DNA from: Candidatus Latescibacterota bacterium
GTDB taxonomy: Bacteria > Latescibacterota > UBA2968 > GCA-2709665
Assembly: GCA_965222075.1 (NCBI GenBank)
Contig: OZ244937.1
Location: 4,544,001-4,608,000 of the forward strand
Length of the DNA: 64,000 bases
Direction: 5' to 3'
A program made the position numbers and the translations under genes. Numbering within the stretch: the first letter of the stretch is position 1; every line of letters begins with the position of its first letter. The notes beneath the pieces are model-generated. The model worked only from the letters and a program-made list of their open reading frames with translations, was not told where the DNA came from and searched no databases. Positions 45,084-57,063 of this stretch are shown here, one piece after another.

Positions 45084-45830
45084 TTACATGACCATGCCAC
45101 CGTCCACCACCAGGACCTGCCCGGTGATATAGGCCGCATCGTCCGATACCAGAAACGCTACTGCCGCTGCGATGTCCTCCGGCTTGCCCGGAATACCCAG
45201 CGGAATCTGTTCGAGGAGTTTGTCTTTGACGTCTTGAGAAAGGTCCTGGGTCATTTCCGTGGGGATGAATCCGGGGGCAACCACATTGGCCGTGATCCCA
45301 CGGCCCGCCAGCTCCCGGGCAACGGTTTTGGTGAGTCCGATGAGTCCGGACTTCGATGCCGTATAGTTGACCTGGCCGGGGTTGCCCATCAGGCCGGTTA
45401 TCGACGAGATGTTGACGATGCGCCCGGTGCGTGCACGCATCATAGCACGCGTGGCTGCTTTGACGCAGAGAAACGCGCCCTTGAGGTTGATATCCAAGAC
45501 CGCGTCCCAGTCTTCCTCTTTCATCCGCATCAACAGGCCATCGCGGACGATCCCTGCGTTGTTGACCAGGATGTCGATCTTTCCCCAGGCGTCCAGGACC
45601 GTTTTGAAGAGGGCCTCCACATCGGTGGGGGTCGAGACATCGGCCTTAAGCCCGAGCGCGCGGCACCCCATCCTCTCGATCTGCTCGGCCACCGACCTGG
45701 CGGCGTCCAGGCTGCGACTGGCACATACGGCCACATCGGCCCCCTCGGCGGCCAGACGGAGCGCAATGGCCTTGCCGATGCCCCGAGAACCACCGGTGAC
45801 AACGGCTGTTCTGTCTTTTAATACGCCCAT
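45084..45830 (-). CDS. fabG: 3-oxoacyl-ACP reductase
   Basis: TGGSRGIG, NNAGIVRD, NYTASK, PGFI, YITGQVLVVDGG; next to acpP. Confidence 0.96.
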   Translation of the reverse strand: MGVLKDRTAVVTGGSRGIGKAIALRLAAEGADVAVCASRSLDAARSVAEQIERMGCRALGLKADVSTPTDVEALFKTVLDAWGKIDILVNNAGIVRDGLLMRMKEEDWDAVLDINLKGAFLCVKAATRAMMRARTGRIVNISSITGLMGNPGQVNYTASKSGLIGLTKTVARELAGRGITANVVAPGFIPTEMTQDLSQDVKDKLLEQIPLGIPGKPEDIAAAVAFLVSDDAAYITGQVLVVDGGMVM

Positions 45831-46813
45831 TTCAGGAGAACGCTGCCCCAGGTATATCCGCCTCCTACGCTCGCCAGGAGAATGTTATCTCTCGGTTTGA
45901 TCCGCCCCTGCTCAACGGCCTCGGAGAGCCCGATGGGGATGGTGCCGGAAGTGGTGTTGGCGTATCGGTCAATGTTGATCAGCACCCTGTCTGCGGGCAA
46001 TTTGAGCCGGTTGACACTGGCGTCGATAATCCGCTTGTTGGCCTGATGGGGCACAAAGAGGGCGATGTCTTCTCCCGTAAGCCCGTTGCGTTCCAGGAGC
46101 TTGACGGATACACCTACCAGGCTGGGGACGGCAAACTTGAAGACCTCCCGCCCCTCCTGATAGATATAGTGCATCTTTTTGTCGACGGTTTCGTGGCTGG
46201 CAGGATGGAGACTTCCCCCCCCGGGTTGGCAGAGATGTTTGCCGCCTGAGCCGTCGATGTGGAAGATAAAATCCTGGATGCCCGATCCATCTTCGGCCGG
46301 TTCCAGGAGCACCGCGCCCGCTCCATCTCCAAACAGGACGCAGGTTTCCCGGTCGGTATAGTCGACGACGGCACTCATCTTATCCGCGCCGATGACGACA
46401 ACCCTTTTATGGGCTCCTGTCTCTACAAATTGACTGCCGACCACGAGGGCGTAGAGAAACCCGGAGCAGGCTGCTGAGAGGTCGAATCCCCAGGCATTTT
46501 TGGCACCCACACTGTCCTGTACCAGGCACGCCGTGGCCGGATACATCATATCGGGCGTTATGGTGGCCACAATAATCAGGTCGATGTCTTTGGCATTTAG
46601 CCCCTTCTGTTCAAGCAGGCTTTCCAGGGCCTGGGCGGCCATATAGGAGGTCCCCAGGCCCTTACCGAGGATGCGCCGTTCTCGGATGCCGGTTCGGGTC
46701 TGGATCCATTCGTCTGAGGTATCGACCATTTTTTCCAGGTCTGCATTGGTCAGCCGTTGCTTGGGAAGATAGCGGGATACTCCGGTAATTGAGACAGAAA
46801 AGGTTTTTTTCAT
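45818..46813 (-). CDS. fabH: 3-oxoacyl-ACP synthase III
   Basis: DTSDEWIQTRTGI, AACSGF, FGDGAGA, PHQANKRI, ANT. Confidence 0.96.
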   Translation of the reverse strand: MKKTFSVSITGVSRYLPKQRLTNADLEKMVDTSDEWIQTRTGIRERRILGKGLGTSYMAAQALESLLEQKGLNAKDIDLIIVATITPDMMYPATACLVQDSVGAKNAWGFDLSAACSGFLYALVVGSQFVETGAHKRVVVIGADKMSAVVDYTDRETCVLFGDGAGAVLLEPAEDGSGIQDFIFHIDGSGGKHLCQPGGGSLHPASHETVDKKMHYIYQEGREVFKFAVPSLVGVSVKLLERNGLTGEDIALFVPHQANKRIIDASVNRLKLPADRVLINIDRYANTTSGTIPIGLSEAVEQGRIKPRDNILLASVGGGYTWGSVLLKWAY

Positions 46814-46914
46814 ACATTACCTGGCGTTTGAAAGGCGCTCTGGGACGCCCACCCTGGTTTTGGGCACAAGCCCGTGTTGGAGCAGGCAGAATCGATGTTC
46901 CACAGATAGGCTCG

Positions 46915-47027
46915 TGGTCATTCTCGCAAGTTCATGTGAAGCTTTCCTGCCTAATTGTCCTTAAGTTGGAAAAAAGTATGTAAACTATAGACTGTGAAAG
47001 CTTCACACATATTTCTGAGAACGACCA
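46915..47027. repeat. Long imperfect inverted repeat between rpmF and fabH
   Basis: Arms 46915-46946 and 46996-47027. Inner 12 bp perfect (tgtgaagctttc/gaaagcttcaca); outer 11 bp with one G-U. Confidence 0.75.
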
Positions 47028-47210
47028 CTAAACGGCTTCGCCTTCCATGGCCTCCCGGCTGTTGTAATGGCCGCAGTTGATACAGACCCGATGCGGCCGA
47101 CGCGGCTGCCCGCAGTTGGGGCACTCGGCAAAAGCAGGCATCGAGAGTTTCCAGTGCGTTCGCCGTTTACCGGTCCTGGAATGGGAGCTTCTTCGTTTCG
47201 GGTTTGCCAT
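47028..47210 (-). CDS. rpmF: 50S ribosomal protein L32
   Basis: MANPKRRSSHSR...CPNCG...HRVCINCGHY. Confidence 0.97.
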   Translation of the reverse strand: MANPKRRSSHSRTGKRRTHWKLSMPAFAECPNCGQPRRPHRVCINCGHYNSREAMEGEAV

Positions 47211-47291
47211 GTTGTTCTCCGAATAGATGTAGCATGGCGCATAGCGTGAAAAACAAAAACCCTATGCGCTATGCTCTGTGCGTTTGACGTT

Positions 47292-47798
47292 TCACGCTTT
47301 CAACGCCCGCAGCGCTTCCCACCGCGGGTCGATGGTTTCGGCTTTACACGTGCACTGTTTGAGGTTCAGGTTTTCTCCGCAGGAAGGACAGAGCCCCGCG
47401 CACGATTCTTTACAAACGGGGCCGATCGGGACCTCGAGGAGAATATAGTCTTTGACCTCTTTTCCCAGATCGATTTTCCCACGTTCGTCATCCAGCCAGA
47501 TGAGCGTCTCGTCCTCATCGCCTCTTAGGGAGGAGGGGCGCCCCTTCTGGAAAATAAATTGGAAGTGAGACGTCAGGCGCAGGTCGAACGGTTCCAGGCA
47601 GCGGACACAGTCTAAGCGGAGGCGGAAGTTTGTATCTCCACTGGTCGAGAGCGAATCGCCCAGCTTAAAGACCGTCATCCGGGTCCTGATGGGGTGTACG
47701 AACCGCAGGTCCGGATCACCGATATGCAGGTCTTCGGGAGCCTCGGCCCATTCGTATTCGTTGGCCCCTTCTTGCAGTTCACGCAGATCGATTTCCAC
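47292..47798 (-). CDS. yceD: DUF177/YceD family protein
   Basis: CVRCL, CKESCAGLCPSCGENLN, DPRWEAL; upstream of rpmF. Confidence 0.93.
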   Translation of the reverse strand: MEIDLRELQEGANEYEWAEAPEDLHIGDPDLRFVHPIRTRMTVFKLGDSLSTSGDTNFRLRLDCVRCLEPFDLRLTSHFQFIFQKGRPSSLRGDEDETLIWLDDERGKIDLGKEVKDYILLEVPIGPVCKESCAGLCPSCGENLNLKQCTCKAETIDPRWEALRALKA

Positions 47799-47812
47799 TG
47801 TATTCGCACTCC

Positions 47813-48220
47813 TTAGAATTCGCCGAAGAAAAAGGCGGTTTCCACTGCTCCATTCTCGGGCGAGTCGGAGGCGTGTACCGCATTTTCCTGCACGTTGCTC
47901 CCAAACGCCTTTCGGATGGTCTCCTCCGCAGCTTCAGCCGGATTGGTGGCGCCTACGACTTCCCGGAGAAAGCGGACGGCGTCTTCCCGTTCGAGTACCA
48001 TAGGCACCGCCGGGCCGGATGTCATAAAATCGAGCAGATCGTTGTAAAAAGGCCGTTCCCGGTGGACCGCATAAAACGCTGCGGCCTGCGCCCGGGTGAG
48101 CCTCATCATCTGCATCTCGACGACTTTAAACCCTTTGTTTTCAACCTGTTTGATAATTTCACCGATAACGTTTCGAGAAACGGCATCCGGTTTGATAATC
48201 ATTAACGTACGTTCTGCCAT
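47813..48220 (-). CDS. ndk: Nucleoside diphosphate kinase
   Basis: ERTLMIIKPDAV, HRERPFY, GATNP, NAVHASDS. Confidence 0.97.
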   Translation of the reverse strand: MAERTLMIIKPDAVSRNVIGEIIKQVENKGFKVVEMQMMRLTRAQAAAFYAVHRERPFYNDLLDFMTSGPAVPMVLEREDAVRFLREVVGATNPAEAAEETIRKAFGSNVQENAVHASDSPENGAVETAFFFGEF

Positions 48221-48290
48221 TTATCCGACCCGGGAAGCAAAAAGATGCAAATGATCAACAGGATGTTGGGCTGTCAGCCTGAAGATGAAA

Positions 48291-48319
48291 AAAATAGAAT
48301 TTCTCAGGGAATTTGTCAA
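48291..48319 (-). promoter_or_regulatory. Sigma70-type promoter for the ndk-fab operon (TTGACA-17-TATTTT)
   Basis: TTGACA at 48319-48314 and TATTTT at 48296-48291. Confidence 0.5.
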
Positions 48320-48370
48320 TACCATTTTTCGACGTCCGTCGCCCCGGGGGAGCCCGTTTTAAGAAAACGG

Positions 48371-48399
48371 TTGACAGGAAGGCGGCCTCACCGTTTAAT
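48371..48399 (+). promoter_or_regulatory. Sigma70-type promoter for the putative ether-lipid operon (TTGACA-17-TTTAAT)
   Basis: TTGACA at 48371-48376, a 17-nt spacer, and TTTAAT at 48394-48399. Confidence 0.65.
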
Positions 48400-48520
48400 T
48401 ATATAGGCTTCGGCTTTGAAAATGTCAACAAAATTATGGAAAAGCAGGCAACGGTCAGCAAAAGTCAAAAAGCCGACGGCCGGCTGTCTGATTAAACTTC
48501 TCTTTCTTTTTCAGGTTCCA

Positions 48521-50119
48521 ATGAATTCCATTTCTCACTTCTTAGACGGCAAGGTCCTGCTTGTCACAGGATCGACCGGATTTGTAGCGAAGGGACTGGT
48601 GGAGAAGCTTCTGCGGTGTGTCCCTGATATACAACGGATTTATCTGCTGGTTCGACCCAGACGTCAGTCGAGCGGGACACCCGTTTCGGCGGAGCAGCGG
48701 TTGGCACGGGAGGTGTTCCCCAGCCGTGCTTTTGAGAAGCTGCGGAAACAGCGGGGACCGGCGTTCGACAGCGTCATCCGGCAGAAGGTTGTGGCTGTGG
48801 CCTATGATCTGGCAGTGGATCGGCTGGGCATCGATCCGGAGGTCTATGCGCGGCTTACCCAAGAGGTAGACATTGTGATCAGCGTTGCGGGCACTGTGGT
48901 TTTTGACGAGCGCCTCGACCTCGCCCTGGAAGTGAATACCCTCGGCCCCCAACGGCTGCTTGAGTTTGCAAAGGCCTGCCCAGATGCCATTTTCCTCCAC
49001 GTGTCGACCGCGTACGTCAACGGGCAGCTGACAGGGCGGATTCCCGAAGTGGTGCTCCCGCCGGATCGTACCATTGCAGAACTGATGGGTAATGGTCGGG
49101 CGTGTGTGTACGATCTGGATGCTGAGATTGCGTCAATCCGGCAGCTCACCCGGCAGGTGGAGGAGACGTCACAGCGCTCGGAGCTCCAGGACCGGTTCCA
49201 CCGAATGCTGGAGAAGCAGGACAGGGGCAAACGGGTTACGGCGTATAGGCGGACGCACCAGCTTGAGGCCCTGCGTATCCGGTGGATTAAGAAGCGGCTG
49301 GTGGAGGAGGGTATGGTCAGGGCGCGGCAGCTGGGCTGGCACGACTGTTACACCCTGACGAAGGCTATGGGCGAACAGGTGATCGTCAAGACCCGGGGGG
49401 ATTTGCCCACGGCCATTGTCCGGCCTTCGATTATCGAAAGCAGCCTGCTGGATCCCGAACCGGGGTGGCTGGAGGATTTGAAGGTGGCCGATCCGCTGAT
49501 CTCCTACTACAGCAAGGGGCGGCTGTCCGATTTTCCCGCGAATCCCGATGTTGTGGTCGATGTGATTCCCGTGGACTTTGTGGTCAATGCGATTATTGCG
49601 GCTCTTCCGAGGGTGCGGGAGGAGAAGGAGATCAAAGTTTACCAGGTGGCCACCGGGTCTGAGAACCCGATGCGACTGGGGGAGATGTTTGAGCTGGTTT
49701 ACGACTATTTTAAGCGGAACCCCATGCAGGATAAAGCCGGACGGCCCATTGAAGTGCACCAGTGGAATTTCCCCAGCCGGGAGACGTTTCGACGCAACTG
49801 CCGCTTAAAATACAAACTTCCCCTTCATACGCTGGGCTGGTTGATGGACCACATCCCACTGTCTTCGCGGTGGAGGCGAAAGGTCTCGATGCTGGAAGCG
49901 ACATTTGACCGGATATTCGCCCTGAGCGAGATTTACAGTTCCTATACCCACCTGAATTGCGAGTTCGAGACGGAGAATACCCGCCGGCTTTATGAAGAAC
50001 TAAATCCTGAAGACCAGGAGATCTTTAACTTCGACGTGACCCGAATCGAATGGCAGGACTACATCCAGAACATCCACATCCCGGGGTTACAGCGCCACGT
50101 GTTGAAAACCCACACTTGA
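48521..50119 (+). CDS. Alcohol-forming fatty acyl-CoA reductase (FAR; NAD_binding_4 plus Sterile domain)
   Basis: VTGSTGFVAKGLVEKLLR, HVSTAYVNG, GWHDCYTLTKAMGE (YxxxK), IVRPSIIES, DVIPVDFVVN, FNFDVTRIEWQDYIQNIHIPGL. Confidence 0.92.
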   Translation: MNSISHFLDGKVLLVTGSTGFVAKGLVEKLLRCVPDIQRIYLLVRPRRQSSGTPVSAEQRLAREVFPSRAFEKLRKQRGPAFDSVIRQKVVAVAYDLAVDRLGIDPEVYARLTQEVDIVISVAGTVVFDERLDLALEVNTLGPQRLLEFAKACPDAIFLHVSTAYVNGQLTGRIPEVVLPPDRTIAELMGNGRACVYDLDAEIASIRQLTRQVEETSQRSELQDRFHRMLEKQDRGKRVTAYRRTHQLEALRIRWIKKRLVEEGMVRARQLGWHDCYTLTKAMGEQVIVKTRGDLPTAIVRPSIIESSLLDPEPGWLEDLKVADPLISYYSKGRLSDFPANPDVVVDVIPVDFVVNAIIAALPRVREEKEIKVYQVATGSENPMRLGEMFELVYDYFKRNPMQDKAGRPIEVHQWNFPSRETFRRNCRLKYKLPLHTLGWLMDHIPLSSRWRRKVSMLEATFDRIFALSEIYSSYTHLNCEFETENTRRLYEELNPEDQEIFNFDVTRIEWQDYIQNIHIPGLQRHVLKTHT

Positions 50120-50201
50120 AACTGAGATTTGAGCGCTTGCAGGATCCCATGGGGCTGAAGCGTGGGAGATGTGGGTTTTTTTGTTTTTCAGGAACGTTTT
50201 G

Positions 50202-52190
50202 ATGGACCGTCGCTATTCTGGCTCCACACCTCTGCTTGACCTGCATATCAACGAACTGATCAACGATTCGGATCAGATGCTGGTTATCTACGACCAGATG
50301 GCGCAGGAGATTATTGAGTTGGGACGCCCAGAGGGGTATTTTGAGAGCTGGGACACCGAGGCGCTGAGGTGGCCGCAAAGCCGGACCGAGGCCGGACCGA
50401 TTGACCTGGAGGGTCTGCAGGCGCGGGTGGGGTTGGTGGATGCCTTTTACCAGGGTGTTCCCAGGCTTCGGGACGAGCGGTTGGCCGAGGCTTACGAGCA
50501 GTTCAGCCGTCTGGCAGCCGCCTACCAGAAAGGGAACCGGATCTACCGGCAGGTCAAGGCGCAGTTCACCGCGCGGGGCGCCGGGACAGAGCAAGATTTT
50601 CTCCAGCTTTATCAGACCCTCTACATCGAGGCGCTGGCAAAGGGGGACCTCTTTGCCCCGGATGTGGGGGAGGCGGCCCTGGCGCAGGCGAGGGTCTCCC
50701 GGGTACCTCTTTCACACGCACAGGTCGTGGCCGAGGCCCTCTCGACGGTTGTCTTAGACGACGATCTCAGGTGGGAGGTTCTCTATTCCTGTACGGTGGA
50801 CGGGGTCACGGTCGAGGCCTCTCTGCGCGATCTGCTTCGGGATGTGGCCCAGCGGACTTTAGACCACATTGCGGCCGGCGAACTTTTAGCGACCCGTTAC
50901 AATACGTACAACAACCTGGGCTGGTTCGGTAGTTCGGTCTGGAAGGTCGTTGTGGGTGCCGAGTTGTTGTTGCATCGGCTCGCCGCCCGGCCCAATGGAG
51001 ATGCGGGGGAACAGGAGGCCGTCCGGTCGGATATCCGGCTTGCGCAGGGCATGCTGATCGCGTTTTTCCAGGCCCACCGCGAAGACCCTGCCCGGTTGAA
51101 GCCAGAGAAGTACTGGTACGGACAGGATTACAGCTATTTGACCCGGGATATGATCGACCTGGGGGTTCGGCTGGTGGGCCGCGTCAACCGGCTGGTTCGG
51201 GATGCGAACCGCTTTGGTGGGGAGGGTGGATTGGAGGCGCTTGCGCTGCCCCCCCTCTTAGCCGGGGAGGCCCGCGGGCGGTTTGTGGAATATCCCCAAG
51301 TTGGCAGACGGGCAACACTCTCTCCCGGGCAGCGGGCGTTCAGGCTCGGACGCTGGGCGCTGGCCTCCTGGAAGACAGGCCGGCGCAGGGTGCGGTTGGC
51401 CAGATCGGTGCTGGAAGAGGATCGTCGGTTGGAGCGGGCGTGGCAGGAGTGGCTGAGGTGGGCCGAGGCCACGCTTCGAATTTTTGACATTCAGGTCAAG
51501 ATCTGTATCGATCCCCAGTTTTTCCGGATTGCCAGAGAGCTGGATCTGGACAGTGGAAAGCGGAAGGTCCTTTTTTTGCCGGCCCACCAGAGTCTGCTGG
51601 ACCATCCGATTATGTATCACGTGCTGGGCTCCTCCGAACTGATGGCTGCGATGGGCTGGGAAAAGCCGAGGCCCTGCGTGCTTCTGGGTCGCACCGGGCT
51701 GTCCAGGGCGGGCGTGAGGATCGGCCCCTGGGACTTTACGATGTTTGGCGTCTCTTCGGAGACCTTCGACTGGATGCTGGAAGAGGTGGATGGTTATGTG
51801 ACGCGCGAACGCGTCGGTGGGACAGGCTCTACGGCCATGAGGGTTGTGGCGGCGCTGGGAAAACGCCCGGGCATCATCTATCCTATGGGGACAACGCCCG
51901 CTTTCGGCATCCAACTCTTTCCACTCCAGCATGGTATGTTCGCCCAGCTGCCCCATGATGTGGTCATTGTGCCCATCGTTTTTCGAGGCGCCCACTCCCT
52001 CTGGCCCAAGTGTCCCAAGGGGAATCTGAACATCAATCCGGGCGTGGTCGAGGCCGTGGTTGCTCCCCCGATGCTGGGTGAGACCACGCTGCTGCCGAAG
52101 CGGCGGCGGCTGCGGATTCAGCTGGAGGCCGCAAATCTCTTTCAGGCGGTTCACATTTCTACGCTGTTGAATCCCGAGCCTTCGGGGTAA
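50202..52190 (+). CDS. Glycerolipid acyltransferase (HX4D family) with about 430 aa of unknown helical N-terminal domain; putative DHAP acyltransferase
   Basis: LFLPAHQSLLDH (motif I), IIYPMGT (variant of FPEGT), IVPIVFRG. Substrate is inferred from gene context only. Confidence 0.7.
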   Translation: MDRRYSGSTPLLDLHINELINDSDQMLVIYDQMAQEIIELGRPEGYFESWDTEALRWPQSRTEAGPIDLEGLQARVGLVDAFYQGVPRLRDERLAEAYEQFSRLAAAYQKGNRIYRQVKAQFTARGAGTEQDFLQLYQTLYIEALAKGDLFAPDVGEAALAQARVSRVPLSHAQVVAEALSTVVLDDDLRWEVLYSCTVDGVTVEASLRDLLRDVAQRTLDHIAAGELLATRYNTYNNLGWFGSSVWKVVVGAELLLHRLAARPNGDAGEQEAVRSDIRLAQGMLIAFFQAHREDPARLKPEKYWYGQDYSYLTRDMIDLGVRLVGRVNRLVRDANRFGGEGGLEALALPPLLAGEARGRFVEYPQVGRRATLSPGQRAFRLGRWALASWKTGRRRVRLARSVLEEDRRLERAWQEWLRWAEATLRIFDIQVKICIDPQFFRIARELDLDSGKRKVLFLPAHQSLLDHPIMYHVLGSSELMAAMGWEKPRPCVLLGRTGLSRAGVRIGPWDFTMFGVSSETFDWMLEEVDGYVTRERVGGTGSTAMRVVAALGKRPGIIYPMGTTPAFGIQLFPLQHGMFAQLPHDVVIVPIVFRGAHSLWPKCPKGNLNINPGVVEAVVAPPMLGETTLLPKRRRLRIQLEAANLFQAVHISTLLNPEPSG

Positions 52191-52296
52191 AACAGGGGCC
52201 AGGGGTCGGGTATCAGGAGTCAGTAAAGGCAAACACCGATGAACGGACGGAGGTCCATCCGGAGGGGATGATGGTTGATATCAGGGGAAATTTATC

Positions 52297-54156
52297 ATGG
52301 TAGAAGCAATAGCTTTGGCGATTGTTGTGGTAGCAGTTTTTGCAATATACCTGGTGAAGCGGCGGCGTTCCTATCGGGACTTAGACGCTTTTTACGACCT
52401 TTCTGAAGGAGAGCGATTTGCCCACAAATGGGGGTATACGGATACCCGGTTTGAGTTTGAGGACCCCAGGACCGTTAAGGTCACCGGGAGCAGATATCCA
52501 ATATCGGGTTACCGGATGCCGTATCTGGTTTCCTTCTTAGAGGATACGCTCGATATCTCTGTCCATCCGGACGATATGAATGTGGAGGTGGAAGACCAGG
52601 AGGTGCCCGAACCGAATACCAACGGTGGGTTTCTGGCTTCTGTTCAGGCCAAATTCAAAGCGGACCAATATTCACTCGATGCAAAGGAGCGCCTGATTCA
52701 CAGCCACGGACAGTTGAGCGTGGACGAAATTTATCGGGTGCTGTATTCGTCATCGCTGAAACGGATAGTCGATCTGGTCTTTTATCCTGAGGGAGAAGAT
52801 GATGTCAGGGCGGTTATCGAACTGGCGAACGAGCACAATGTGTGCTTAGTGCCCTATGGAGGCGGGACGAACGTAAGCGGCGCGCTGGCCTGTCCGGTTG
52901 GAGAACAGCGGATGATTGTGTCGGTGGATTTGAGGCGCATGAACCGAATTCTGTGGGTTGATAAGGAGAATTATCTGGCCTGCGCTGAAGCGGGCATCCT
53001 GGGCAAGCAGCTGGAGGTGGGGCTTGAGGCAAAGGGGTACACGTCGGGGCACGATCCGGACAGTGTTGAGCTTTCGACTCTGGGGGGATGGATTGCGACC
53101 AACGCCAGCGGGATGAAAAAGAACAGATACGGCAATATCGAAGAGATCGTGCTTGAGGCCACGCTGGTTACTCCTACGGGGGAGATTGAAACGAAGCATG
53201 TAACGCCGAGGAATTCAACCGGCATCCAGCCCAGGTCTTTTCTGTTCGGCAGCGAGGGCAATTTTGGCATTATTACCAAGGCGGTGATCAAGATCCATCT
53301 CCTGCCGGAGGCGCGCAAATACGGGTCGCTTGTGTTCCCCTCTTTTGAGAAGGGCGTCGGCTTCTTAAAGGCATTGCGTCAGACGGGCGGGTTGCCCGCA
53401 AGTATCCGTCTGGGGAGCAATAAGGAGCTTCGATTCGCGCAGGCTTTAAAACAGGAACCGACATTTTTGAAGAGGACTAAAGAGAAGGTGCAGGCATTCT
53501 TTATGCAGAAGATCCTGAGCTTCGATCCGATGCAGATGGTCGTCTGCACCATTGTGATGGAGGGTTCAAAGGAGGAGGTGCGCCAGCAGGATAAGACGAT
53601 CTTCAGTCTGGCTAAAAAGCACGGCGGCATGAGCGCCGGCGCGAGCATCGGAAAACGGGGGTATGCGCTGACGTTCGGGATTGCTTATATTCGGGACTTC
53701 GTCAACGAGCTTCAGATCCTCGGGGAGACGTTTGAGACGTCGGTGCCGTGGGATAAGATCCACCAGGTGTGCCAGGCCGTGCAGGAAGAATTAGATGAAC
53801 AGGCGGTAAGGTATCACATACCGGGCAAGCCTTATCTCCAGTACCGTGTTCCGCAGACTTACCACACAGGGGTTTGCATTTATTTTACGATGGGTTTTTG
53901 TGGGAAAGGGCTGGAAAGACCGGATGAGGTTTTTCACAATATCGAGCGGCGCCTGCGGCAGGTTATTCTCGACAACGGCGGCTCTTTGTCCCACCACCAC
54001 GGCGTAGGCAAGATCCGGCAAGGCTTCCTGCCCCAGGTTCAGACTGAAAACACCATCCATGTTTTGCGTCAGACTAAAAAGGCGATGGATCCCAACAACA
54101 TCTTTGGAATCAGAAACGGCGTTTTTAATGCGTTCCCTGATGATTTATTAATGTAA
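52297..54156 (+). CDS. agpS: Alkyl-dihydroxyacetonephosphate synthase (alkylglycerone-phosphate synthase), with N-terminal TM anchor
   Basis: WGYTD, PYGGGTNVS, GHDPDSVELSTLGGWIATNASGMKKNRYGNIE, GSEGNFGIIT, PASIRL, RGYALTFGIAYIRD, ETFETSVPWD, GVCIYF, SLSHHHGVGKIR, DPNNIFG. Confidence 0.92.
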   Translation: MVEAIALAIVVVAVFAIYLVKRRRSYRDLDAFYDLSEGERFAHKWGYTDTRFEFEDPRTVKVTGSRYPISGYRMPYLVSFLEDTLDISVHPDDMNVEVEDQEVPEPNTNGGFLASVQAKFKADQYSLDAKERLIHSHGQLSVDEIYRVLYSSSLKRIVDLVFYPEGEDDVRAVIELANEHNVCLVPYGGGTNVSGALACPVGEQRMIVSVDLRRMNRILWVDKENYLACAEAGILGKQLEVGLEAKGYTSGHDPDSVELSTLGGWIATNASGMKKNRYGNIEEIVLEATLVTPTGEIETKHVTPRNSTGIQPRSFLFGSEGNFGIITKAVIKIHLLPEARKYGSLVFPSFEKGVGFLKALRQTGGLPASIRLGSNKELRFAQALKQEPTFLKRTKEKVQAFFMQKILSFDPMQMVVCTIVMEGSKEEVRQQDKTIFSLAKKHGGMSAGASIGKRGYALTFGIAYIRDFVNELQILGETFETSVPWDKIHQVCQAVQEELDEQAVRYHIPGKPYLQYRVPQTYHTGVCIYFTMGFCGKGLERPDEVFHNIERRLRQVILDNGGSLSHHHGVGKIRQGFLPQVQTENTIHVLRQTKKAMDPNNIFGIRNGVFNAFPDDLLM

Positions 54157-54168
54157 GTAGGCCATAAA

Positions 54169-54975
54169 ATGCCTCAAGAAAAGACAGTGATCATAACAGG
54201 GGCTTCTTCGGGGCTTGGTGCATCGCTGGCCCTGGAATTCGCCAAGGCCGGAGCGAATCTTGGGCTGTTTGCGCTGGACGAGGAAGGGCTGATGGAAACC
54301 GCAGGTAAGTGTCGGGAGCGCGAGGCCCGCGTTCTTACGGCTGCCGGAGATGTGGGAAGGCCAGAAGACTGTGAACAGCTGGTTGAAGATACGGTTTCCC
54401 AATTTGGGGGGGTGGACTACCTGATTGCCTGCGCCGGTGTGAGTATGTGGGCGAAATTCGAAGAGATTGAGGACGTATCCATATTCCGCAAGCTTATGGA
54501 GACAAATTACCTTGGCATTGTCAACTGCGTATATTACGCCCTTCCGCATTTGAAGGTGCGCAGCGGGATGATTGTGGCCATCTCCTCGATCCAGGGCAAG
54601 ATAGGCGTTCCGTTCCATACAGGTTATGTCGCCTCTAAGCACGCTGTGCAGGGTTTTTTCGAGTCTCTGCGAGCCGAGCTCAGCGGGAGCGGCGTGAATG
54701 TCCTGACCGTATTGCCCCACTGGTTGAGGGGGACCAATTTGCGGAAGAGCGCTTTTGGGAAAGATGGGAGCTCTATGGGAGCGTCGGAGAAAGAACACAG
54801 CAAGGAGTCCATCTCTCTTGAGGAATGCTGTCAGGCCATCCTCAAAGCAATCGAAAAGAGGAAAAGGGAGTTGGTCATTCCTTCAAAGCTCAAGGTCCTT
54901 CCGTGGTTAAATCTGATCAATCCCAAGATTGTAGCGTTTTTCGTTAAGGGGGCGATGGAACAGCAGGACAGGTAG
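54169..54975 (+). CDS. SDR oxidoreductase, DHRS7/DHRS7B-like (putative acyl/alkyl-DHAP reductase)
   Basis: ITGASSGLG, METNYLG, IVAISSIQGK, YVASKHAVQGFFESLRAEL. Confidence 0.8.
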   Translation: MPQEKTVIITGASSGLGASLALEFAKAGANLGLFALDEEGLMETAGKCREREARVLTAAGDVGRPEDCEQLVEDTVSQFGGVDYLIACAGVSMWAKFEEIEDVSIFRKLMETNYLGIVNCVYYALPHLKVRSGMIVAISSIQGKIGVPFHTGYVASKHAVQGFFESLRAELSGSGVNVLTVLPHWLRGTNLRKSAFGKDGSSMGASEKEHSKESISLEECCQAILKAIEKRKRELVIPSKLKVLPWLNLINPKIVAFFVKGAMEQQDR

Positions 54976-55003
54976 AGCGTCGCCGCATGCATAGGGTCCC
55001 CCC

Positions 55004-57063
<2,060 letters not shown>

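Follow-up and report, generated by a model that had tools for sequence, protein, structure and literature searches.

Does a bacterial gene whose product resembles a mammalian ether-lipid enzyme derive from a eukaryote, mark the bacterial sister group of the eukaryotic enzyme, or belong to a pathway of long standing in bacteria? This question is raised by an open reading frame (ORF) for a putative alkyl-dihydroxyacetone phosphate (alkyl-DHAP) synthase, AGPS, at positions 52297-54156 on the forward strand of a 64,000-nucleotide stretch of DNA from a sponge-associated Candidatus Latescibacterota bacterium (contig OZ244937.1; hereafter the window, to which all coordinates refer). The original prediction, made from the letters of the window, described the product as strongly eukaryote-like and proposed either horizontal acquisition or a bacterial sister group of the eukaryotic enzyme. 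From the analysis presented here it is highly probable that the ORF encodes a bacterial AGPS that is functional and anchored in the membrane, and that it stands third in an operon of four vertically inherited genes, whose predicted chemistry is that of the early, peroxisomal-type eukaryotic ether-lipid pathway. Where eukaryotic ether lipids came from is still debated, and to this question the locus contributes a gene that appears neither eukaryote-derived nor a privileged sister of animal AGPS.

The ORF is uninterrupted and codes for a protein of 619 amino acids (P0001). Two Pfam domains, FAD_binding_4 (4.4e-38, residues 159-298) and FAD-oxidase_C (1.5e-34, residues 336-603), both score far over their cut-offs, giving the two-domain arrangement of a VAO/PCMH-type flavoprotein. 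When all PDB sequences were searched with HMMER, the top match was guinea-pig peroxisomal AGPS (4bby; 495.8 bits, residues 44-607 against 95-656); the second AGPS structure, that of Dictyostelium (2uuu), scored 304.8 bits, and the best non-AGPS flavoenzyme 80.8 bits. Similarity to the solved AGPS structures therefore runs from end to end, and the AGPS-specific N-terminal domain is present. All six motifs quoted in the original prediction were found, namely ASGMKKNRYGNIE (residues 270-282), PASIRL (367-372), RGYALTFGIAYIRD (454-467), GVCIYF (525-530), SLSHHHGVGKIR (563-574) and DPNNIFG (598-604), each stretch differing from guinea-pig AGPS at between zero and four residues in the HMMER alignment with 4bby. 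Residues Y529, H566-568 and R371 align with guinea-pig Y578, H615-617 and R419, the catalytic Tyr, the HHH loop and the active-site Arg of the solved enzyme; PDB entries 4bca and 4bby differ precisely at this Tyr (Y578). As these residues are kept in 79-81 of 82 sampled family members, the Dictyostelium type included, they mark the AGPS family rather than a eukaryotic flavour. By family assignment the product is thus predicted to be a genuine alkyl-DHAP synthase (EC 2.5.1.26), in agreement with the original prediction. The near identity to mammalian AGPS that it saw in the motifs holds for those stretches; the protein as a whole is 42-46% identical to animal-like representatives.

The best NCBIfam model of P0001 is glcD (TIGR00387, 153 bits), as might be expected were the protein another FAD-linked oxidase of the glycolate oxidase GlcD or D-lactate dehydrogenase type. 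However, this score falls far under the model's cut-off of 567.9 bits, and the D-lactate and glycolate enzymes in the PDB match the FAD domain only, at 81 bits or less compared with 496 bits for AGPS. Tyr529 and the HHH loop are also in place in P0001, as is the N-terminal domain specific to AGPS, and such an assignment is barely credible.

The AGPS gene stands third among four co-directional genes separated by gaps of 49, 106 and 12 nt. The first (P0004, 48416..50119, forward strand) encodes a fatty acyl-CoA (or acyl-ACP) reductase (FAR), recognised by the Pfam domains NAD_binding_4 (4.3e-64) and Sterile (3.3e-18). Translation probably begins at the ATG near 48521 (residue 36) and not at the TTG opening the longest ORF at 48416; the tblastn matches of relatives to FAR begin at residue 36 or earlier (23-36, or residue 2 in locus L001). 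The second (P0003, 50169..52190, forward strand) encodes a predicted divergent acyltransferase of the GPAT/PlsC fold, identified from an HX4D motif, a model of its fold and a sub-threshold match to PF01553. The fourth (P0002, 54169..54975, forward strand), beginning 12 nt past the AGPS stop codon, encodes a short-chain dehydrogenase (SDR; Pfam adh_short, 8.4e-47; NCBIfam PRK06181, 294 bits) with the cofactor-binding TGASSGLG and YVASK (Tyr-x3-Lys) sequences of a classical SDR in its translation. Among PDB sequences it is most closely related to 11-beta-HSD1, and with the SDR domain of a natural AGPS-SDR fusion (P0481) it shares 35% identity (E 7e-42). It is a candidate acyl/alkyl-DHAP reductase.

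This arrangement is widely conserved. All four genes were found in 18 of 23 related loci, corresponding to 18 of the 20 named Latescibacterota, with FAR upstream of AGPS in 18 and SDR downstream of it in 22. AGPS and SDR occur together in those 22 of the 23 loci, and the sequence of the exception stops 270 nt past AGPS. The four-gene set also recurs in 5 of 51 metagenome loci found via the acyltransferase P0003. In two sponge metatranscriptome libraries, short contigs at least 99% identical to the window lie on all four genes of the operon, leaving parts of the genes uncovered, which for contigs is uninformative; they fit expression of the operon without constituting proof of it.

How, then, is this enzyme related to its eukaryotic counterparts? 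The AGPS family is large: a library clustered at 50% contains 15,391 of its representatives at E<=1e-3, of which 932 reach E<=1e-30. Three large bacterial types can be distinguished by their named homologues. That of the window is found in Latescibacterota, Poribacteria, Marinimicrobia, Gemmatimonadota and Gammaproteobacteria (63-95% identity), a second in Chloroflexota/Anaerolineae, Acidobacteriota, Eremiobacterota and Trueperaceae, and a third in Myxococcota/Deltaproteobacteria, Leptospirales and Sericytochromatia. The rows here termed animal-like owe their eukaryotic label to leaders resembling the peroxisomal targeting signal type 2 (PTS2; P0133, P0152 and P0158), to an animal-like fragment (P0137) and to PDB similarity only. 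Identity to the PTS2-bearing P0133 is 46% (521 bits) for the myxobacterial-type P0129, 45% (509 bits) for the poribacterial P0021 and 42% for P0001; similarly, the Myxococcus xanthus AGPS is described as about 42% identical to that of humans (PMC9131029). Since identity is comparable across bacterial clades, being strongly eukaryote-like is a general property of bacterial AGPS. The original prediction was therefore right that the similarity to animal AGPS is clear (496 bits, 42-46% identity), but this is not special to the locus.

A phylogeny was calculated from 82 rows picked from 511 stored proteins, over 569 columns, under LG+C20+F+G4 with posterior mean site frequencies, a quick search and the Shimodaira-Hasegawa-like approximate likelihood ratio test (SH-aLRT). 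The rows exclude fragments and sequences with multiple hits, and of each multi-domain protein only the AGPS domain was kept; FastTree was used for row picking only, and several long branches and compositional outliers were flagged. The tree is displayed rooted on the Dictyostelium-type clade, the root not being inferred. P0001 falls in a 15-row clade (SH-aLRT 99), within a 30-row clade that includes the Chloroflexota type (96), itself within a 62-row clade (99) that takes in every named bacterial type as well as the multi-domain forms. Outside this last clade, the animal-like lineages form an unresolved grade. In approximately unbiased (AU) tests, which both rest on the quick search and on groups defined after the tree was seen, joining the clade of P0001 (15 rows) and the animal-like rows (11) as one clade was rejected (difference in log likelihood 134.9, p-AU 0.0007). 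For the myxobacterial type (12 rows), union with the animal-like rows was not rejected (3.5, p 0.44).

These results bear directly on the suggestion that the Latescibacterota-type clade is the bacterial sister group, or the donor lineage, of animal-type AGPS. P0021 is indeed among the bacterial sequences most similar to P0133, second to P0129, and the published phylogenetic signal of AGPS has been judged insufficient, leaving the question open (PMC13012113). However, the 62-row bacterial clade excludes the animal-like lineages, the clade of P0001 lies two further starred nodes inside it, and the AU tests reject a union with the animal-like rows for this clade and not for the myxobacterial type. 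A sister relationship, one of the two origins first proposed, is accordingly contradicted by the nesting of P0001 among bacterial AGPS and is highly unlikely; in the data used, the myxobacterial-type clade alone stays compatible with a link to animal AGPS.

Dictyostelid AGPS is placed elsewhere again. P0219 is a dictyostelid AGPS (1092 bits to 2uuu) and belongs to a clade of its own with proteins of 550-600 amino acids (rows P0219, P0226 and P0222-P0258), at a great distance from the animal-like rows; an Atlas lead points to mainly Actinomycetota as the source of clusters of such size. An Atlas look-up with P0021 returned generic AGPS or FAD-oxidoreductase clusters only. Eukaryotic AGPS may be polyphyletic, which fits the published remark on the poor phylogenetic signal of this enzyme.

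The other proposed origin, horizontal acquisition, drew on base composition. The AGPS and SDR genes have GC contents of 0.527 and 0.537, at the 7th and 9th percentiles of 3150 crude ORFs of at least 200 amino acids in the genome, compared with 0.612 for the acyltransferase gene, 0.657 for bioA and 0.593 for the genome; the 60-nt lines of the AGPS gene range from 0.33 to 0.67. The lower-GC segment noticed at the outset is thus real, though not extreme. Over the same ORFs, the GC content at third codon positions (GC3) of AGPS is 0.642, at the 20th percentile (genome median 0.731, standard deviation 0.089), and the deviation of its synonymous codon usage from the genome mean is at the 21st percentile, below that of four genes in five; the housekeeping neighbour ndk is similar (GC 0.539, GC3 0.61). 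In 18 relatives, the GC content of AGPS stays at 0.51-0.58 while its GC3 tracks the local genome, and it lies below that of both the acyltransferase gene and the locus in only three, all at higher-GC loci (0.57-0.60). The steady GC content in relatives indicates that the dip stems from amino-acid composition being under constraint while the genome around it is richer in GC.

An AGPS match at E<=1e-100 is present in 124 of 168 Latescibacterota genomes: 21 of 21 in the family to which the window's organism belongs (f1), 29 of 31 in f2, 1 of 3 in f3, 71 of 76 in f4, none of 31 across f5-f13 and 1 of 5 in f14. In the organism's own class (f1, f2 and f4) the gene is nearly universal. Identity is graded by rank, at 95% within the genus, 68-72% within the family, 62-67% within the order and 57-67% for orthologous matches within the class. 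In all 18 loci with the four-gene operon, ndk lies directly upstream of FAR, and the fab genes are usually nearby too. The locus is on a single 5.36-Mb contig, and the nearest public relative of the genome is a Latescibacterota metagenome-assembled genome (MAG) with an AGPS 95% identical. The assembly also appears sound, answering the concern that it might be chimeric: 47800-55300 is crossed, with 4 differences, by one contig of 10,049 nt assembled in a run of another study, and 48245-55300 by one of 8,770 nt in a third, although one of these could be the source sample.

A recent gift from a eukaryote, for instance a sponge host, would explain both the animal-like sequence and the lower GC content, and it gains some appeal from the presence of the organism in sponge-derived runs, from the low GC percentiles of AGPS and SDR and from the 496 bits to mammalian AGPS. 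Yet the identity of P0001 to animal-like representatives, at 42-46%, equals that of other bacterial clades; the protein is nested in a bacterial clade, and its union with the animal-like lineages is rejected; the gene is spread across 124 genomes of the phylum with identity following rank, and holds the same slot beside ndk in every operon-bearing locus. Its GC3 and codon usage are typical, AGPS is below its surroundings in only three of the 18 relatives and not in those of about 50% GC, and its neighbours are housekeeping genes, among which no mobile-element family was seen in Pfam searches of the flanks. The deviant GC3 or codon usage, mobile flanks and patchy presence of a recently transferred genomic island are not what is found here. 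The original prediction had held that nesting among common bacterial AGPS and a GC3 equal to the genome average would speak against it; the nesting is observed, and GC3 agrees loosely with the average (0.642 against a median of 0.731). Acquisition from a eukaryote thus merits next to no credence, and the composition, distribution and synteny point to long vertical residence of the AGPS operon rather than recent transfer or chimerism.

Vertical inheritance within the phylum need not extend to its root. The operon may have passed at some depth between Latescibacterota, Poribacteria, Marinimicrobia, Gemmatimonadota and Gammaproteobacteria, so that the Latescibacterota copy would be old but not strictly ancestral to the phylum. 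Named homologues in other phyla reach 67-69% identity, on a par with those in other Latescibacterota families (57-72%), named Latescibacterota rows are interleaved in the tree with Gemmatimonadota and Poribacteria rows, and families f5-f13 yielded no match at E<=1e-100. On the other hand, taxonomic labels of MAGs can be wrong, support within the clade is weak at its inner nodes (80-94), and absence from other classes could equally be explained by loss. We rate such exchange at slightly less than an even chance; it would leave the function of AGPS unaffected.

P0001 also differs from the animal enzyme at its N-terminus, where a candidate membrane anchor is encoded at 52297..52368 (forward strand; residues 1-24), with a hydrophobic helix at about residues 4-20 followed by KRRR. 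On the Kyte-Doolittle scale, the 17 amino acids from residue 4 average 3.09, every 19-residue window above 1.6 starts within residues 1-5, and no other part of the protein is strongly hydrophobic. The 120 closest homologues have a comparable segment in 99 cases; it occurs in none of 119 AGPS of the Chloroflexota/Acidobacteriota type and in 11 of 119 of the myxobacterial type, and the anchor is therefore a conserved trait of the AGPS subclade of P0001. By the positive-inside rule, the catalytic domain would face the cytoplasm. A relaxed PTS2 pattern run over P0001 and 150 other representatives matched six rows, P0001 not among them; of these, P0133, P0152, P0158 and P0207 look leader-like, and P0149 and P0211 look like chance matches. 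The proposal that a membrane anchor takes the place of the animal PTS2 leader is accordingly borne out.

The least familiar member of the operon is the acyltransferase. P0003 consists of a helical N-terminal part of about 440 residues and a C-terminal catalytic domain. The longest-ORF start at 50169 is probably too far upstream, with residue 12 (about 50202) a better candidate; the matches of most relatives to P0003 begin near residues 9-12, and their longest ORFs are shorter by a similar N-terminal stretch. A Pfam scan of P0003 gave no match at the default threshold, and searches of PDB sequences, with the protein singly and as a 10-sequence profile, returned nothing meaningful. Below threshold, PF01553 matches residues 464-605 (E 0.072, 13.3 bits against a cut-off of 23), and at E<=0.1 the same domain is found in 17 of 37 family members, the best at 8.8e-8. 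Among 37 genomic and metagenomic homologues, at 40-92% identity, none departs from the H473 and D478 of an HX4D motif. An AlphaFold2 model of P0003 reached a predicted local distance difference test score (pLDDT) of 87.1 and a predicted template-modelling score of 0.90; a first model, built from 10 sequences, was discarded at a pLDDT of 55.8. When the model was compared with the PDB using Foldseek, nine of the 10 best matches were PlsC, GPAT or PatA acyltransferases, headed by PlsC 5kym (E 7.8e-5, template-modelling score 0.62-0.65 on the target) and including squash GPAT 1k30 and human GPAT1 8e4y. The predicted structure thus identifies P0003 as a divergent acyltransferase of the GPAT/PlsC fold, and the position of its gene between FAR and AGPS suggests that it is a DHAP acyltransferase. 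The locus also points to a large acyltransferase family missed by current domain libraries.

Taken together, the four products would account for a short pathway, in which substrates, topology and products are predicted. FAR would convert an activated fatty acid to a fatty alcohol, and the acyltransferase P0003 would produce 1-acyl-DHAP. At the cytoplasmic face of the inner membrane, where its N-terminal helix would hold it, AGPS would then swap the acyl group for the alcohol to give 1-O-alkyl-DHAP, through a non-redox flavin mechanism using Tyr529, His566-568 and Arg371. Finally, the SDR would reduce the keto group, yielding 1-O-alkyl-glycerol-3-phosphate, which could enter normal phospholipid synthesis. 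Alkyl lipids (plasmanyl or monoalkyl glycerol ether) would be expected and not plasmalogens, because no PEDS1/CarF was found, although the control for this search was uninformative.

Several observations weigh against this reconstruction. The function of P0001 and its clade is assigned by sequence comparison, not biochemistry, and the substrate of the SDR is likewise inferred only. PEDS1 (PF10520) was not found in the organism's own genome, but 14 control genomes were equally silent, such that its absence is not shown. The RNA-library contigs may come from contaminating DNA. As to the anchor, 21 of the 120 close homologues either have no hydrophobic N-terminus or have a miscalled start, most of them starting just ahead of the conserved domain. 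The acyltransferase attracts most of the doubt: judged by its sequence, P0003 does not appear recognisable as GNPAT; a profile of its family, run against all stored proteins, matched P0003 alone and no acyltransferase domain of the FAR-acyltransferase-AGPS fusions described below; and an hhalign comparison of the family with those domains was weak (P 7.6e-4, probability 10%). Furthermore, many relatives of P0003 at metagenome loci have no AGPS nearby, and in 7 of 10 such loci examined a GFO/IDH/MocA oxidoreductase adjoins the relative; the P0003 family is therefore not dedicated to the ether-lipid pathway, and probably has a second role besides ether lipids.

The seven loci in question (L093, L098, L101, L103, L107, L113 and L116) carry relatives of P0003 that are 43-51% identical, without FAR or AGPS, and placed divergently beside the oxidoreductase gene. 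In five of them an enolase-superfamily (MR_MLE) gene lies downstream, and in two further loci a PhyH dioxygenase gene is found upstream instead.

Natural fusions tie the FAR, acyltransferase, AGPS and SDR activities together, as far as their domain composition indicates. Among 12 long AGPS relatives scanned, seven join FAR, acyltransferase and AGPS in that order, three join acyltransferase and AGPS, one joins AGPS and SDR, and one is AGPS alone. The seven giants (P0139, P0147, P0175, P0187, P0200, P0143 and P0148; 1387-2727 amino acids) thus repeat the order of the operon, four of them with an ACBP and/or DegT-like domain in front, and in the tree they fall among the bacterial AGPS types, apart from the animal-like rows. 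Other natural fusions are seen in P0126 (810 amino acids), P0481 (998 amino acids) and P0044 (1060 amino acids), where AGPS is combined with an acyltransferase, an SDR or an aminotransferase-type domain. It is conceivable, though unlikely, that the unfused, pathway-ordered operon resembles the source module of the single-chain ACBP-DegT-FAR-acyltransferase-AGPS giants (2100-2700 amino acids). Should the giants be eukaryotic, to which their low-complexity runs and ACBP domains point, AGPS-based ether-lipid modules would on this reading have passed from bacteria to eukaryotes on more than one occasion, and the P0003 family would be a missed bacterial DHAP acyltransferase.

Among characterised systems, mammals provide the same four steps through separate proteins, FAR1, GNPAT, AGPS and PexRAP/DHRS7B, again with an SDR reductase; DHRS7B we take to lie in the 11-beta-HSD1 neighbourhood of the SDRs. 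The guinea-pig enzyme (4bby) shares with P0001 its domain organisation, catalytic Tyr, HHH loop and Arg. However, the AGPS of the window falls outside the animal-like part of the tree, has a signal-anchor helix in place of a PTS2 leader and a peroxisome, and is encoded with its partners in one operon. Dictyostelium AGPS (2uuu) belongs to the same family and has the same catalytic residues, but is more distant (305 bits), P0219 being part of the separate clade used as outgroup.

Closer in organisation is the M. xanthus operon MXAN_1676-1675-1674, described as encoding AGPS, a FAR-GNPAT fusion and a reductase of the NAD-dependent epimerase family (PMC9131029), in which disruption of MXAN_1676 is reported to lower ether lipids slightly (PMC9131029, PMC13012113). 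Both loci encode a bacterial AGPS with FAR, acyltransferase and reductase functions. In the window, by contrast, FAR and acyltransferase are separate genes, gene order equals pathway order, the acyltransferase comes from a family under the Pfam threshold, and the reductase is a classical SDR and not an epimerase-family protein. Myxobacterial-type AGPS also forms another bacterial subclade, in which the anchor is found in 11 of 119 members rather than 99 of 120. The myxobacterial ElbD pathway (elbA-E) likewise yields bacterial alkyl ether lipids through FAR-like and acyltransferase modules, but ElbD is described as a multidomain enzyme whose route needs no AGPS (PMC9131029).

The presence of agps in Latescibacterota is already published, and the locus is a variant of a known bacterial ether-lipid operon. 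Latescibacterota homologues were reported from the Black Sea, in 67 of 92 MAGs (PMC11868695), and sponge-symbiont MAGs of Latescibacterota, Poribacteria and Acidobacteriota were reported to carry agps (preprint 10.64898/2026.06.23.733905). A 2026 PNAS paper argued for a myxobacterial origin of PEDS1 and FAR-GNPAT, finding that AGPS lacked signal, and its main text makes no mention of Latescibacterota, Poribacteria or triple fusions (PMC13012113). No description of the unfused four-gene operon, the conserved membrane anchor or the unannotated P0003 acyltransferase family was found in the literature searched, the supplementary tables of PMC13012113, PMC11868695 and the preprint, which may list the clade, being outside the scope of this comparison; all three appear to be new. 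The bacterial producers of the alkyl glycerol ethers of sponges are described as unsettled (preprint 10.64898/2026.06.23.733905). For these compounds, abundant in sponges, the locus offers a candidate pathway of four genes that is compact and conserved and is apparently transcribed. Its interest is modest, and lies in the lipid biology of sponge symbionts and in a negative data point on the origin of eukaryotic AGPS.

Upstream of the operon, on the opposite strand, lies the conserved housekeeping flank of fabG, fabH, yceD and ndk (45084..48220, assigned by Pfam); downstream, bioD and bioA are convergent with it. The divergent intergenic region between ndk and the operon (48221..48415) contains promoter-like sites at 48271-48300 (forward strand, 9 of 12 positions) and 48319-48291 (reverse strand, 10 of 12), both being consensus matches only. 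Across the 7.4-kb region, six promoter-like sites were found compared with 2.7 +/- 1.3 in shuffled sequences; terminator-like sites in the same scan were at chance level (8 found, 8.1 expected), with none at gene borders, and an Rfam scan of the window gave no RNA family. From one DNA run (X3), a further five short contigs align to 53083-53151 alone, where the ASGMKKNRYGNIE motif is encoded, and differ from the window at 2-3 positions over 32-42 nt; the sample probably contains several other AGPS-bearing organisms, whether host or symbionts. Beyond the operon, the reverse-strand ORF at 55004-56455 has its dethiobiotin-synthase domain confined to residues 258-459, and its upstream part overlaps the bioA-like aminotransferase ORF at 55696-57063; the real start of bioD is probably near 55780, giving a short overlap of bioA and bioD.

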